Sequence record: OZ035765.1
Direction: 5' to 3' (one strand)
Length of the DNA stretch: 45,062 nt
Source: Veterinaerplatzvirus T145P1
Shown here: positions 5,674 through 44,781 of the stretch, one piece after another
Position numbering within the stretch: the first letter of the stretch is position 1
Layout: the number at the start of each line of letters is the position of its first letter
Translations under genes and position numbers: made by a program
The notes under the pieces: model-generated
The model's database searches: none
Told to the model about the DNA's origin: nothing
Seen by the model: only the letters and a program-made list of their open reading frames with translations

Positions 5674-6618
5674 ATGGCCATTAAATTTGATGCAGAACAA
5701 GCAAAAATCACCGCTCACCTCGAGCAAATGGGCGTAGAGAAAGCAGATGCCGCTGGTATCTGGACTGTTAAGCAACTGACCGCCAATCTGGCACGAGCTT
5801 ACGAAAAAGAATATGCAGACAACTCCGTTGTTAATATCTTCCCTGTGACCAATGAAATCCCTGGTCATGCGAAATATTTCGAATATCCAGAATTTGACGG
5901 CGTTGGCATTGCTCAGATTATCGCCGATTACTCTGACGACTTGCCGCTGGTTGATGCGTTTATGACCGAGAAACAGGGTAAAGTGTTCCGCTTTGGTAAC
6001 GCGTTCCTGATCTCCACTGACGAAATCAAAGCAGGTGCGGCAACTGGTCAGCCACTGTCGGCTCGCAAACAGGCTCTGGCATTCGAAGCGCATGATAACC
6101 TGCTGGATAAACTGGTATGGTCAGGCTCTACACCACACGGAATTCCTAGCGTGTTCAATCATCCGAACATCAACAACGTTGTTTCTGGTGGTGCGTGGAG
6201 CTCTGCATCTGCCGCCATGACTGATATTACCGCACTTATTGATGCAATCGAGACTGCGACTAATGGCACTCACACCGCAACTGATATCTTGCTGCCTGCC
6301 TCCGCTCGCCGCCTGATGCAAGAACTGGTGCCGAATACATCTATCAGCTACGCCCAGCTGTTCGCTACCAATAACTCTGGTATCACTCTGCGTTATCTTC
6401 AGTTCCTGGATAACTACGACGGAGCAGGCGGTAAAGCAGCATTGGCGTTTGAAAAGAATCCTCTCAACCTTTCGATTGAGATCCCGGAAGCGACCAATGT
6501 ACTTCCAGGACAGCCTAAGGATTTGCACATCCGCTACCCTGTTACCTCCAAAGCAACAGGATTGATTTTATATCGCCCTCTGACGGTGGCCGTAATGAAA
6601 GGTATCACCTTCGCGTGA
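5674..6618 (+). CDS. major capsid protein
   Basis: 314 aa; own sigma70-like promoter (TTGCGT-16-TATAAT), strong RBS and flanking terminators indicate very high expression. Confidence 0.65.
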   Translation: MAIKFDAEQAKITAHLEQMGVEKADAAGIWTVKQLTANLARAYEKEYADNSVVNIFPVTNEIPGHAKYFEYPEFDGVGIAQIIADYSDDLPLVDAFMTEKQGKVFRFGNAFLISTDEIKAGAATGQPLSARKQALAFEAHDNLLDKLVWSGSTPHGIPSVFNHPNINNVVSGGAWSSASAAMTDITALIDAIETATNGTHTATDILLPASARRLMQELVPNTSISYAQLFATNNSGITLRYLQFLDNYDGAGGKAALAFEKNPLNLSIEIPEATNVLPGQPKDLHIRYPVTSKATGLILYRPLTVAVMKGITFA

Positions 6619-6624
6619 TAAATC

Positions 6625-6647
6625 GCCCTCTTCGGAGGGCTTTTTTT
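6625..6647 (+). terminator. rho-independent terminator (after major capsid gene)
   Basis: GCCCTC-TTCG-GAGGGC followed by T7. Confidence 0.7.
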
Positions 6648-6710
6648 ACGTCTGTACCAAATGGATTTGTTGGGTTATAATCACTCAATCAGATAACAAA
6701 GGAGACAAAA

Positions 6711-6956
6711 ATGATTCGTTTAGAACACACTGGCGCTTGCCTTATCGTTTACAGGGGTGAGAAATATTTGCCTGGTGACACTTTCGAGGTTGATGCAATT
6801 TGCGACGGACTCAAGCGTTTAATCGCAGAGGGTAAACTCACCATTGAGGGTGACGCCAAAGCAACCAAACAAATCGCGCAAGAAGTTGTTAGCAAGAAAA
6901 AGCGCAGAGAACCGAAAACCATCTCCGAGGCTGAGACTGGTAACGAGTACAAATAA
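6711..6956 (+). CDS. hypothetical protein
   Basis: 81 aa, RBS AAAGGAG, terminator downstream. Confidence 0.45.
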   Translation: MIRLEHTGACLIVYRGEKYLPGDTFEVDAICDGLKRLIAEGKLTIEGDAKATKQIAQEVVSKKKRREPKTISEAETGNEYK

Positions 6957-33693: not shown

Positions 33694-33737
33694 TAGCACT
33701 TTTTGCCTAACGCATGCCGTAGAAATGAGGCATAATT
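33694..33737 (+). promoter_or_regulatory. conserved promoter/operator module
   Basis: TAGCACTTTTTGCCTA, CATAAT, leader TACCACATCGAAACGAG. Confidence 0.45.
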
Positions 33738-33777
33738 ACCACATCGAAACGAGATGAACTAAACGAGGAAACACAAA

Positions 33778-33954
33778 ATGACTAAAATGATTTATTGCAC
33801 CAAAAACAACTCCAAAACGCTGCCATTTACAGTTAACCAGCCGTACAATGCAGAGTACCAGGGTGATGGATATTACAAGATTTACGGTGACGATATGACG
33901 TGGATTTTAGCGCCGATTGAAGGTTCACTGGTTGAATTTATTATCGCTGACTAG
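33778..33954 (+). CDS. hypothetical protein (58 aa)
   Basis: Follows promoter module 33694-33737; terminator after the stop. Confidence 0.35.
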   Translation: MTKMIYCTKNNSKTLPFTVNQPYNAEYQGDGYYKIYGDDMTWILAPIEGSLVEFIIAD

Positions 33955-33980
33955 CACAGAAAAAACATAGCGTTACGCAC

Positions 33981-34006
33981 GGGGGGCCTTTTGGCTCCCC
34001 TTTTTT
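33981..34006 (+). terminator. rho-independent terminator before lysis cassette
   Basis: GGGGGCC-TTTT-GGCTCCCC followed by T6. Confidence 0.6.
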
Positions 34007-34085
34007 ATGCTTCTTTTCCGAGCATGGCTCCTGTATCATGTTTACACTAACTTAAACATTGACAAATAAATAAATGGAGGATCAC

Positions 34086-34301
34086 ATGAGGGAAGTAATC
34101 AACGCCGCTACAGCGTCAACCGGCGGGGCTGCGGTAACTGGCGCAGCAACTGGTCAAATGACTATAGCAATAATCAGCCTTATCGCTTTAATCATTTTTG
34201 GCGCATGGGGTGCTTACTGGAAGTTTAAAGATAGCCAGGCGATTCGGCGTGCCATTGAATCTGGCGACCTAAAGACAGCAATCAAGATAAGGAGCAAGTA
34301 A
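34086..34301 (+). CDS. holin (single TMD, pinholin-like; possible dual start at 34074/34086)
   Basis: 71 aa with one hydrophobic TMD and a charged C-terminus; directly upstream of endolysin; two in-frame ATGs 4 codons apart. Confidence 0.6.
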   Translation: MREVINAATASTGGAAVTGAATGQMTIAIISLIALIIFGAWGAYWKFKDSQAIRRAIESGDLKTAIKIRSK

Positions 34302-34787
34302 ATGAAGCAGAAGCTGCTAATTAGCGCCGCTACGGCTGCGGCAATATACATCGCAGCACCGCTTATTGAGCTCGTAGAGGGTGTGGAGAACAAGCCTTAC
34401 ATGGACATTGCCGGGGTGAAAACCGTATGCGCAGGTATTACTGGCTCTGACGTTGTTTGGGGTAAGACTTACAGTAATAGGGAGTGCCGGAACCTGCTGG
34501 AGAAGCACATCCAGATTCATGGTAAGTATGTTCAGGATGCAGTTACCTACCCAATTGCACCACAGACAAGAGCTGCATTAATCAGCTTTAGCTATAACGT
34601 TGGCGGCAATGCAATGAGGAAGTCTACCGCTGTAAGGCTAATCAACCAGGGTAAAGTTGAGAAGGGTTGCAACGCTCTCGGGATGTGGAACAAAGCAAGA
34701 GTTAACGGAAAGCTGAAGGTAGTTAAAGGCTTGGTGAATCGCAGGAATGAGGAGATTAAGTTATGTTTAAGTGGATTGCAGCGTTAG
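34302..34787 (+). CDS. SAR endolysin (T4-type lysozyme fold, putative)
   Basis: N-terminal hydrophobic signal-anchor segment followed by E...D...T lysozyme-like catalytic region. Confidence 0.8.
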   Translation: MKQKLLISAATAAAIYIAAPLIELVEGVENKPYMDIAGVKTVCAGITGSDVVWGKTYSNRECRNLLEKHIQIHGKYVQDAVTYPIAPQTRAALISFSYNVGGNAMRKSTAVRLINQGKVEKGCNALGMWNKARVNGKLKVVKGLVNRRNEEIKLCLSGLQR

Positions 34788-35152
34788 TAGTGTGCGTAGC
34801 TTTATCTGGATGTTCGGCAACTGATGCACTGACTGGATTGATTGGAAGCAAGCCGGAAGTTACAGCTCAGGTCGGGGCTGAGAACAACAAGGTTGGCGTT
34901 GGGTTAACGAATAAGGTCGATTCCAGCAGCTCCAGTGAAGCCACGGTTAAAGATTCTAAAGTTGGGTCACTTGATAGCTCAAGCGGGAAAAAGACTGCTG
35001 ACAACTCGATTAAGGCATCTACAATCACTGCCGAAAAGATTGAGATTACCAACAACGACTCATCCGCGCCTCCATGGATTGTAATGGGAGCTATGGGGTT
35101 GCTGTTTTTTGTTCCACTTACCGCAATCTTAAGACGCAAAAAAGCCTCCTAA
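34763..35152 (+). CDS. unimolecular spanin (T1 gp11-like)
   Basis: N-terminal lipoprotein signal (LSGC) and C-terminal transmembrane helix followed by RRKKAS; overlaps endolysin 3' end. Confidence 0.7.
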   Translation: MFKWIAALVVCVALSGCSATDALTGLIGSKPEVTAQVGAENNKVGVGLTNKVDSSSSSEATVKDSKVGSLDSSSGKKTADNSIKASTITAEKIEITNNDSSAPPWIVMGAMGLLFFVPLTAILRRKKAS

Positions 35153-35168
35153 TGGAGGCTATATTTTT
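35137..35168. terminator. bidirectional terminator (spanin stop codon in loop)
   Basis: A6-GCCTCC-TAAT-GGAGGC followed by T-run. Confidence 0.65.
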
Positions 35169-35502
35169 AGCTAAATAACTCGTCGTCAGTCATTGTTCCT
35201 ATATTCATCATCTCTTTTATGTACTTGCTTTGATACCCGTTAAGCGCCTCGAAGTTAAACTCAAATGGCCTCTTCAAGCTACCATTGCTAGCAAACTCAC
35301 CGCACTTACCATCAATGTATCCCATGCTAAGCATCTTCGCGCAGAACTCCTTTGAAGCCGCGCTGCAAAACTCCCTATGCGATAATCCTGCCGCCTTACT
35401 GAATCTCTGAGAGTCCTTATGCTGGTAGATGAATCGCGCCAAATGCTGTCGCGTGAAAAAGCTGTAAGATTCGCAGAACCGGTACAAGTCAAGGATGAAC
35501 AT
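35167..35502 (-). CDS. hypothetical protein
   Basis: 111 aa, last gene of the minus-strand NTPase operon; bidirectional terminator after it. Confidence 0.45.
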   Translation of the reverse strand: MFILDLYRFCESYSFFTRQHLARFIYQHKDSQRFSKAAGLSHREFCSAASKEFCAKMLSMGYIDGKCGEFASNGSLKRPFEFNFEALNGYQSKYIKEMMNIGTMTDDELFS

Positions 35503-44704: not shown

Positions 44705-44781
44705 GCTCGAGTGGCGAAAGTGGATATCGCAAGAGACTTCTAATCTCTAGATTGCTGGTTCGAATCCAGCCTCGAGCGCCA
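44705..44781 (+). tRNA. tRNA-Arg (anticodon UCU)
   Basis: Hand-folded cloverleaf: 7-bp acceptor GCTCGAG/CTCGAGC, D-arm GCGA/TCGC with GG loop, anticodon stem AGAGA/TCTCT with loop CTTCTAA, T-arm GCTGG-TTCGAAT-CCAGC, discriminator G, encoded CCA. Confidence 0.85.

Follow-up and report, generated by a model that had tools for sequence, protein, structure and literature searches.

The region is very probably the late lysis cassette of a T1-like coliphage (Drexlerviridae, Braunvirinae, Veterinaerplatzvirus), which would carry out three-step lysis via a SAR endolysin, a 71-aa holin and a unimolecular spanin (u-spanin). This module of holin, SAR endolysin and u-spanin has already been described in T1-like coliphages and is of an ordinary type. 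The first-pass annotation had proposed a lysis cassette with this gene order, which was borne out by PHROG and Pfam matches and by orthology of the three genes to T1 genes 13, 12 and 11. Judged by their PHROG and Pfam E-values, the three ORFs are genuine genes, not chance ORFs. DNA identity to Veterinaerplatzvirus T145P1 in the region is 98.7%. Matches spanning 80% or more of the region come from 80 phage records, and the annotations found there are holin, endolysin and u-spanin. The features are listed below, with coordinates relative to the window (i.e. the whole stretch of 45,062 bp that was analysed).

33981..34000, + strand: upstream intrinsic terminator; 8-bp stem (7 GC) followed by T6; -20.6 kcal/mol, z -4.2
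34074..34085, + strand: upstream in-frame ATG and the next three codons (MEDH); leader, most probably untranslated, containing GGAGG
34074..34301, + strand: holin ORF from the first ATG; 75 aa
34086..34301, + strand: holin; 71 aa; T1 gp13 orthologue; phrog_2877
34302..34787, + strand: endolysin; 161 aa; GH24 lysozyme; SAR, R21 type
34314..34367, + strand: predicted SAR domain, residues L5-I22 (LLISAATAAAIYIAAPLI); weakly hydrophobic, no Cys, after MKQK
34377..34424, + strand: predicted catalytic triad E26-x8-D35-x5-T41; aligns with the equivalent R21 residues
34763..35152, + strand: unimolecular spanin; 129 aa; T1 gp11 orthologue; phrog_1804
34802..34813, + strand: lipobox LSGC, after MFKWIAALVVCVA; Cys17 is the predicted lipidated residue, with Ser at +2
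35075..35131, + strand: C-terminal transmembrane helix predicted from hydropathy, residues 105-123 (WIVMGAMGLLFFVPLTAIL); then a basic tail, RRKKAS
35143..35160, both strands: bidirectional intrinsic terminator, AGCCTCC-TAAT-GGAGGCT

Gene layout and comparison with phage T1

The endolysin ATG immediately adjoins the holin stop codon, and the 5′ end of the spanin gene overlaps the 3′ end of the endolysin gene by 25 nt in a different frame. The Shine-Dalgarno (SD) duplex energies at the holin, endolysin and spanin starts are -9.3, -8.5 and -9.4 kcal/mol, respectively; duplexes of -8 kcal/mol or below are found at just 3.9% of all ATGs in the window. Relatives were surveyed in 65 IMG/VR loci, comprising 49 distinct endolysins and 53 distinct spanin ORFs. 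Measured from the conserved ATG, the holin is 71 aa long in 64/65 of these loci, and a recognisable endolysin gene follows it in 63/65.

Gene order is the same as in T1 genes 13, 12 and 11, with products of 71/161/129 aa here and 71/162/133 aa in T1, and identities to gp13, gp12 and gp11 of 56%, 44% and 39-44%. The flanking genes are also shared, namely those for an exonuclease and a DUF7244 protein on the upstream side and a small convergent gene and a helicase on the downstream side. In T1, too, a terminator sets gene 14 apart from the holin, although its hairpin sequence is unrelated to the one here, and both spanins carry an LSGC lipobox. The two cassettes differ in the endolysin/spanin overlap, which is 1 nt in T1, and in the SD region, which here happens to hold an in-frame ATG that is absent in T1. 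Moreover, the C-terminal helix of the spanin is divergent in sequence here and contains Pro. Spanins of the T1gp11 family reside in cassettes with a pinholin and a SAR endolysin (Kongari 2018, Young laboratory survey, PMC6139136), and the cassettes of T1 and KanT1 likewise combine a pinholin, a SAR endolysin and a u-spanin (PMC13164509).

Terminators and promoter search

The upstream terminator lies between the DUF7244/SH3-like gene and the holin and forms the 5′ boundary of the lysis unit. At the other end, the hairpin at 35143-35160 folds on either strand (-15.6 kcal/mol with z -4.3, and -15.0 kcal/mol with z -3.6) and is common to the cassette and a convergent minus-strand gene (35167..35502). 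The spanin stop codon had been placed in the loop of this terminator, and this was confirmed (TAA, 35150-35152); the T1 spanin stop codon likewise lies within the loop of the terminal hairpin. A relative (L013) shows a compensatory change in the stem, and the record of phage EC3a has terminators annotated on both strands of this hairpin.

No sigma-70 promoter for the cassette was found by a consensus scan. A conserved TTGACA at 34060-34065 was considered as a -35 box for holin expression and was rejected, since the matching -10 box, 17 nt further on, would run into the start codon. Separately, a putative promoter annotated by BPROM in SU57 corresponds to positions ~34011-34039 of the window, with a weak -35 and a TATCAT -10.

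Endolysin

The endolysin matched Pfam Phage_lysozyme (PF00959, E 7.9e-35) and the PHROG endolysin profile (E 5.5e-47), while its matches in NCBIfam were sub-threshold only. A T4-lysozyme-like catalytic region, as proposed from the sequence, is borne out by the Pfam family and by the E26-x8-D35-x5-T41 triad; the E-x8-D-x5-T pattern is present in 49/49 distinct family endolysins surveyed. The best solved relatives are RrrD (4zpu, 1.2e-27) and R21 (3hde, 5.4e-27). The HMMER alignment reaches the R21 SAR domain, placing endolysin residues 12-24 on R21 residues 20-33. The SAR segment has a hydrophobicity sum of 0.99 with 50% G/A/S/T; the SAR domain of R21 has 0.78 and 63%. There is no Cys before Glu26, and a Cys-free SAR domain is what sets the R21 type (class II) apart from the disulfide-caged P1 Lyz type. 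The suggestion of a SAR-type endolysin is therefore supported, both by the weakly hydrophobic Cys-free N-terminal segment and by R21 and RrrD being the closest solved relatives.

With R21 (phage 21; 3hde, 3hdf) and RrrD (DLP12; 4zpu) the enzyme shares the GH24 fold family, the triad, the type of SAR segment, four Cys at matching aligned positions and 43% identity. It differs from R21 in having a SAR segment richer in Ala and poorer in Gly, 3-4 residues instead of about 8 between the end of the SAR segment and the catalytic Glu, and a 4-residue insertion near the C-terminus. A close counterpart is 57_3Lys of Veterinaerplatzvirus vB-EcoS_57-3, a phage of the same genus with a genome of 45,774 bp as against 45,062 bp for the window; its N-terminal 20 residues (MKQKLLISAATAAAIYIAAP) and E26, D35 and T41 are identical to those here. 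Lysis by 57_3Lys is reported to be azide-sensitive (i.e. Sec-dependent), evidence which the authors themselves call indirect (2026 preprint, bioRxiv 10.64898/2026.09.09.750462).

It is very unlikely that the N-terminus is instead an ordinary cleaved Sec signal peptide, which would make the enzyme a secreted, soluble periplasmic lysozyme and not a membrane-tethered one. The layout does resemble the n, h and c regions of such a signal (MKQK, a hydrophobic core, and the small residues AAA at 12-14 and IAA at 17-19), and SignalP 6.0 and DeepTMHMM give a signal of ~20 aa at the endolysin N-terminus (bioRxiv 10.64898/2026.09.09.750462). However, identity to R21 and RrrD is 43%, the alignment enters their SAR domain, the segment resembles that of R21 both in its weak hydrophobicity and in its content of small residues, and homologues in GenBank are annotated as SAR endolysin. 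Cleavage sites follow the -3/-1 rule, and Pro at +1 blocks signal peptidase I. The IAA site has Pro at +1, whereas cleavage at the sole other small-x-small site past the core (V-E-G27) would cost the enzyme its catalytic Glu26. Moreover, a free and active periplasmic lysozyme would be expected to cause premature host lysis and would leave the adjacent small holin pointless. An uncleaved SAR domain is the reading retained below.

Holin start site

Two in-frame ATGs, four codons apart, had been noted at the start of the holin ORF, and these were confirmed (34074 and 34086, 12 nt apart, with the extension MEDH). The extension was also confirmed to be acidic and not basic (M-E-D-H, that is Glu, Asp and His, with no Lys/Arg). 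The resemblance to a holin/antiholin dual-start motif, on the other hand, was not supported. The first ATG is most likely an ATG within the ribosome-binding site of the true start. The Shine-Dalgarno sequence GGAGG lies at 34076-34080, with a 5-nt spacer to ATG 34086, and its first base is the G of ATG 34074, such that the two overlap.

Well-studied dual starts are those of lambda S107/S105 and S21 71/68, in which the antiholin extension is defined by an added basic residue. In the dual-start motif the SD serves the upstream start, and RNA structure sets the ratio of both starts. A functional dual start of this kind, with a 75-aa regulator (antiholin or pro-holin) made from ATG 34074 and the 71-aa holin from ATG 34086, is highly improbable here. 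The two ATGs are in frame within a single ORF, but the first is without an SD of its own (duplex energy +0.7 kcal/mol versus -9.3 for ATG 34086) and shares bases with the GGAGG of the second. The leader 5′ of the first ATG is very A/U-rich and unstructured, which could permit some SD-independent initiation; yet no sdi-like regulatory RNA hairpin was predicted, positions 34050-34110 being unstructured (MFE -2.1, z +1.7), and the extension is without the basic residue typical of known antiholins.

Conservation of the upstream ATG can be read on both sides of the question. Counterparts of ATG 34074 are kept in 3/65 IMG/VR loci (including L015 and L016, whose contigs also bear the handles L005 and L006) and in three GenBank near-relatives (L079-L081). 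However, sister clades have AAGGTGG at the position of ATGGAGG, and no upstream in-frame start was found at this position in T1 or five other upstream types. Upstream NTGs across types are in frame in 3 cases and out of frame in 4; in-frame ones are not commoner. The holin is of 71 aa in nearly all of the relatives (see above), the PHROG holin profile begins at the second Met (Met5 of the 75-aa version), and those curated GenBank records that bear ATGGAGG annotate a 71-aa holin. Furthermore, 5/33 strong-SD ATG starts in the window also have an in-frame ATG 1-6 codons upstream, and therefore the in-frame pair does not exceed chance. A single start at ATG 34086 is the reading used from here on.

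Holin family and topology

The holin matched the PHROG holin family phrog_2877 (E 1.1e-36) and is 56% identical to T1 gp13 (E 2e-31). No family was matched in Pfam or NCBIfam, the Pfam TatA match being sub-threshold only. Residues 4-24 form a weakly hydrophobic stretch rich in Gly/Ala/Ser/Thr (segment 1); a strong TMD follows at 25-45 (segment 2), and the protein ends in a charged tail on the cytoplasmic side. S21 and lambda S served as reference sequences for the hydropathy comparison. Summed hydrophobicity is 6.7 for segment 1, with 80% G/A/S/T, compared with 6.4 for TMD1 of S21, and -0.56 for segment 2. Because just Gly-Gln lies between the two hydrophobic segments, a hairpin topology of the holin is uncertain.

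The holin had been called pinholin-like, and this description stands in part: its hydropathy and its SAR endolysin partner fit, but it has no similarity to the phage-21 pinholin S21 (BLASTP E 3.1). Because of this lack of similarity, we infer the label 'pinholin' only from partner and hydropathy. Pinholins of the S21 type form holes of ~2 nm, by which the membrane is depolarised and proteins are not passed. Like S21 68/71, the holin is small, with a marginally hydrophobic first segment of small residues, a stable second TMD and a basic C-terminal tail, and it adjoins the gene of an R21-type SAR endolysin. Unlike S21, it lacks a polar loop between the segments, a functional dual start and a basic antiholin extension. 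No experiments on any T1-type holin were found in the literature examined.

A different view is that the holin has a single TMD in an N-out/C-in orientation and is of the canonical large-hole type, with the SAR endolysin being freed by the loss of membrane potential. We regard this as unlikely. According to its record, the T1 holin has a single transmembrane domain, the two segments here are separated by two residues only, and S21 similarity is lacking. Segment 1, with its sum of 6.7, could also be seen as too polar for a stable TMD; TMD1 of S21 is nevertheless as polar and inserts transiently. Moreover, charged residues are absent from segment 1 in all of 38 distinct homologues, and its conservation exceeds that of the TMD (mean entropy 0.65 vs 0.97); neither would be expected if it were a passive periplasmic tail. 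The Young laboratory survey also puts such cassettes under pinholin and SAR endolysin (PMC6139136).

Unimolecular spanin

The spanin matched the PHROG Rz-like spanin family phrog_1804 (E 4.4e-49), with a sub-threshold match only in NCBIfam. It is 44% identical to T1 gp11 over 108/129 aa (E 9e-26), which lies above the threshold for the T1 gp11-type family of at least 40% identity over at least 40% of the length (Kongari et al. 2018). The proposal of a unimolecular spanin with the layout of T1 gp11 is supported by this homology and by the presence of an LSGC lipobox and a C-terminal TMD in one polypeptide. The lipobox of wild-type T1 gp11 is the same, LSGC (PMC6139136). Sorting of the spanin to the outer membrane is implied by the Ser, in place of Asp, at +2.

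A lipobox is found in 51/53 distinct spanin ORFs of the family, together with a C-terminal TMD; here that TMD has a hydrophobicity sum of -0.11. The periplasmic part is 87 aa long and contains 0 Cys. It is Cys-free in all 51 lipobox-bearing family spanins, with a length of 84-90 aa in nearly all. A single-sequence AlphaFold2 model of the spanin (mean pLDDT 55.6) contains only two terminal helices, one of them at 104-127, and at this low pLDDT no secondary structure is assigned to the middle part. The periplasmic domain of u-spanins is expected to consist mainly of beta strands. A compensated frameshift was considered as the origin of the divergent C-terminal helix and was rejected, as the DNA comparison revealed same-length substitutions and no indels.

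A u-spanin is annotated in phages JeanPiccard and SU57, and T1 gp11 complements lambda RzRz1 mutants (Kongari 2018, PMC6139136). By homology to T1 gp11, the spanin would serve the same last lysis step as lambda Rz/Rz1, namely disruption of the outer membrane. In contrast to Rz/Rz1, both membrane anchors are on one polypeptide, there is no periplasmic Cys and no coiled-coil prediction, and the evolutionary origin is unrelated (PMC6139136).

Proposed lysis mechanism

The three genes would be translationally coupled; a strong Shine-Dalgarno sequence precedes every one of them, and intrinsic terminators flank the set. Sec would export the endolysin, and its uncleaved, weakly hydrophobic N-terminal SAR helix would tether the inactive enzyme to the inner membrane. 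The 71-aa holin, made from ATG 34086 only, would meanwhile build up in the inner membrane and depolarise it at a set time. Its N-terminal Gly/Ala/Thr-rich segment may resemble the releasable first helix of a pinholin, while the second helix would act as stable membrane anchor and pore element. Upon depolarisation the SAR helix would be released, and the enzyme would refold like R21 and degrade the peptidoglycan. R21 is activated through SAR release, as others have shown. In the last step, the spanin, held in the outer membrane by the lipid on Cys17 and in the inner membrane by its C-terminal helix, would be able to disrupt the outer membrane after loss of the peptidoglycan mesh, probably via fusion of both membranes. 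Homology, motifs, hydropathy, SD strengths, terminators and conservation were established in this analysis; we infer the pinhole nature of the holin, the non-cleavage of the SAR domain and membrane fusion by the spanin.

Implications

Beyond correct annotation the significance of the cassette is small, dozens of GenBank records of close relatives already giving holin, endolysin and spanin. The useful outcome is a negative one: annotations should start the holin at 34086, giving 71 aa, and should not carry the apparent dual start forward. It is exceedingly improbable that the ATGGAGG-bearing subclade of Veterinaerplatzvirus and Guelphvirus makes a minor 75-aa isoform via SD-independent initiation which acts as a lysis accelerator; through its acidic extension, such an isoform could promote export of the N-terminal segment. 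If true, the accelerator would have a polarity opposite to that of antiholins with basic extensions, and would represent a new control of lysis timing in a T1-type holin.

A T1-like lysis cassette

Three plus-strand genes were found in the ORF table where the first-pass annotation had placed a lysis cassette.

34074..34301, plus strand: holin ORF, 75 aa if read from its first ATG, 71 aa if read from ATG 34086 in the same frame
34302..34787, plus strand: endolysin ORF, 161 aa; its ATG directly abuts the holin TAA
34763..35152, plus strand: spanin ORF, 129 aa; its first 25 nt lie within the endolysin gene in a different reading frame
33981-34000, plus strand: upstream intrinsic terminator (-20.6 kcal/mol), preceding the holin
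35143-35160, both strands: bidirectional terminator hairpin, AGCCTCC TAAT GGAGGCT, with an A-run before and a T-run after

The identity of the cassette is borne out by profile searches, in which the holin matched phrog_2877 (1.1e-36, the profile starting at the second methionine), the endolysin matched GH24 phage lysozyme (PF00959, 7.9e-35; phrog_7, 5.5e-47) and the spanin matched the Rz-like phrog_1804 (4.4e-49). Phage T1 has the same arrangement in genes 13, 12 and 11, with identical neighbours, and its orthologues share 56% (gp13), 44% (gp12) and 39-44% (gp11) identity with the window proteins. Veterinaerplatzvirus T145P1 matches the DNA at 33700-35300 with 98.7% identity, and at least 80% of this stretch is covered in 80 phage records, nearly all from Drexlerviridae Escherichia phages, many with holin, endolysin and u-spanin already annotated. 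Every part of the cassette has been described before in T1-like phages and most of it is annotated in close relatives; nothing in it is new.

Upstream, within 33778-34000, lies a 58-aa DUF7244/SH3-like gene (PF23896, 2.6e-29); the corresponding stretch of the related phage locus L011 is 6584-6808. A recent proposal makes this gene an auxiliary part of the Drexlerviridae lysis module (PMC13164509). The strong terminator at 33981-34000 stands between it and the holin, and T1 carries a terminator-like hairpin with an unrelated sequence at the matching position before its holin. This arrangement suggests that the gene is the last of the preceding transcription unit and that the lysis genes are transcribed separately from it. 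A TTGACA hexamer at 34060-34065 occupies the same position in related loci L017, L018, L052 and L054, with near matches in T1 (TTGTTC) and L021 (TTAACA); the hexamer or a near match recurs 20-23 nt before the holin ATG in clades that otherwise diverge. As a -35 box for a holin mRNA promoter it was rejected, being too near the start codon. Downstream, a convergent 111-aa gene (35167-35502, minus strand; phrog_2794, 1.7e-55) has its terminator in common with the spanin and matches T1 gene 10 in position, upstream of the helicase gene. One tRNA-Arg gene (anticodon TCT, 44705-44781) lies near the window's right end; a single arginine tRNA is likewise reported for Veterinaerplatzvirus vB-EcoS_57-3.

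Spanin and terminator

The third gene encodes a unimolecular spanin of the T1 gp11 type, as had been proposed, with lipobox and C-terminal helix in one polypeptide. The lipoprotein signal MFKWIAALVVCVA-LSGC (Cys17, Ser at +2) is followed by 87 Cys-free residues, the helix WIVMGAMGLLFFVPLTAIL and a basic tail, RRKKAS; 51 of 53 distinct homologous spanin ORFs share this plan. T1 gp11 also has an LSGC lipobox and complements lambda RzRz1, u-spanins have no periplasmic Cys, and spanins of the T1gp11 family are located in cassettes with a pinholin and a SAR endolysin (PMC6139136). Identity to gp11 is 44% over 108 residues, which places the protein in that family under the threshold of Kongari et al. 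(40% identity over 40% length; PMC6139136). Relatives were found in 1169 phage records (tblastn). A single-sequence AlphaFold model (pLDDT 55.6) was too poor to judge the predicted beta-rich middle domain. The helix at 35075-35131 reads ..GLLFFVPLTAIL, containing Pro, versus ..GLLVLILMALIL in close relatives, with seven consecutive residues differing between identical flanks. Since the DNA is of equal length, these are substitutions, and a frameshift is ruled out as their cause. The closest relative, OZ035767, has an identical spanin protein.

The spanin TAA (35150-35152) does sit in the loop of the bidirectional terminator, as first read, and the hairpin has folding energies of -15.6 and -15.0 kcal/mol (z -4.3 and -3.6) on the two strands. 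The T1 spanin stop likewise lies in a terminal hairpin loop, and the EC3a record annotates terminators on both strands at the equivalent of 35143-35160. In the related locus L013 (IMGVR_UViG_2974571423_000001), the stem GCCTCC...GGAGGC is replaced by GCCCCC...GGGGGC, a compensatory double change that keeps pairing and also replaces the terminal Ser of the spanin by Pro; here, spanin coding sequence and terminator constrain each other.

Endolysin

The best solved relatives of the endolysin are RrrD (4zpu, 1.2e-27) and R21 (3hde, 5.4e-27), the paradigm SAR endolysins, and the HMMER alignment reaches into their SAR domain. R21 shares 43% BLASTP identity, with four Cys at matching aligned positions. 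Summed hydrophobicity of the N-terminus, MKQK-LLISAATAAAIYIAAPLI, is 0.99, close to the 0.78 of the R21 SAR domain (Hessa biological scale); the segment LLISAATAAAIYIAAPLI has 50% small residues and no Cys, and precedes the catalytic triad E26-x8-D35-x5-T41, a layout common to all 49 distinct endolysins of related loci. These features uphold the assignment to the SAR type.

The rival reading, raised in the first-pass annotation, is a cleaved signal peptide. 57_3Lys, the vB-EcoS_57-3 endolysin characterised in a September 2026 preprint, is identical to the window endolysin in its N-terminal 20 residues and E26/D35/T41; SignalP and DeepTMHMM call a signal of ~20 aa on it, sodium azide suppresses lysis upon its expression, and it was classed as a class II SAR endolysin (bioRxiv 10.64898/2026.09.09.750462). 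A signal is thus predicted for this homologue. In the window endolysin, however, Pro occupies +1 of the candidate cleavage site that follows IAA, and cutting at the sole alternative, VEG27, would remove the catalytic Glu. Predictors, moreover, routinely label SAR domains as signal peptides. Taken together, these points make it likely that the predicted SAR domain stays uncleaved.

Holin

The 71-aa holin has four parts: an MRE N-terminus, a 21-residue segment 1, a helix (M25-W45) and a charged tail. Segment 1, VINAATASTGGAAVTGAATGQ, is 80% Gly/Ala/Ser/Thr, and its best 19-residue window sums to 6.7 versus 6.4 for TMD1 of S21, the phage-21 pinholin, a helix that is releasable. M25-W45 is strongly hydrophobic (21-residue segment 2 sum -0.56; all on the Hessa scale). 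The alignment of 38 distinct homologues (54-100% identity) is free of gaps and shows no charged residue at positions 4-45, and mean column entropy is 0.65 in segment 1 versus 0.97 in the TMD. Being uncharged throughout and better conserved than the TMD argues that segment 1 is more than a passive tail.

The pinholin-like label given earlier is reasonable as far as hydropathy and usage go, "pinholin" being applied to T1-type cassettes by Kongari et al. 2018 (PMC6139136) and the 2026 KanT1 paper (PMC13164509). Homology to S21 does not hold. The holin does not resemble S21 68 in sequence (E 3.1) and matched no Pfam or NCBIfam family, the gap between segments 1 and 2 is Gly-Gln only, and the T1 record describes the gp13-type holin as a single-TMD protein. 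Judged by sequence, it falls outside the S21 family; a pinholin-like function can reasonably be inferred.

Holin start

ATG 34074 and ATG 34086 are in frame, four codons apart (context aaATGGAGGATCACATG), and the extension MEDH adds Glu, Asp and His, acidic and not basic, as had been noted. In lambda S107 and S21 71, the antiholin extension acts via an added basic residue. The G of ATG 34074 is the first base of a GGAGG lying 5 nt upstream of ATG 34086, and the SD duplex with the 16S rRNA 3' end is +0.7 kcal/mol (no SD) for ATG 34074 versus -9.3 for ATG 34086; the endolysin and spanin starts reach -8.5 and -9.4, and just 3.9% of plus-strand ATGs across the window reach -8. RNA folding of the holin initiation region gave no lambda sdi-like hairpin, the region folding less stably than its shuffled counterparts (MFE -2.1 kcal/mol, z +1.7).

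Counted from the conserved ATG, the holin is 71 aa in 64 of 65 related IMG/VR loci. The upstream in-frame ATG is found in three (the window's own contig type, L015 and L016), and also in the near-identical GenBank relatives L079-L081. A sister clade has AAGGTGG in place of ATGGAGG, giving an in-frame GTG one codon later, and Webervirus-like phages have GAGGTTG at this position; T1 has an ATG and a GTG out of frame, and several other clades have none. Across upstream sequence types, NTG triplets are no commoner in frame (3) than out of frame (4), so it is the purine-rich SD that is conserved and not a second start codon. EC3a, 2725-N35 and SU57 share ATGGAGG with the holin annotated as 71 aa, and the SU57 record annotates GGAGGA as its RBS. 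Such pairs also arise by chance: 5 of 33 strong-SD ATG-start ORFs in the window carry a further in-frame ATG 1-6 codons before the start.

The suggested holin/antiholin dual start is therefore not supported, its first ATG lacking an SD, being rarely conserved and adding an acidic extension, with no hairpin and a pattern reached by chance. We conclude that the motif looks like a dual start because the SD happens to contain an ATG, although the A/U-rich leader may permit low-level SD-independent initiation at ATG 34074. In practice, the holin annotation should cover 34086..34301. An in-frame ATG also lies 3-5 codons upstream at four other strong-SD ATG-start ORFs (1268 and 16091, plus strand; 27698 and 27109, minus strand), where the choice of start codon needs equal care.
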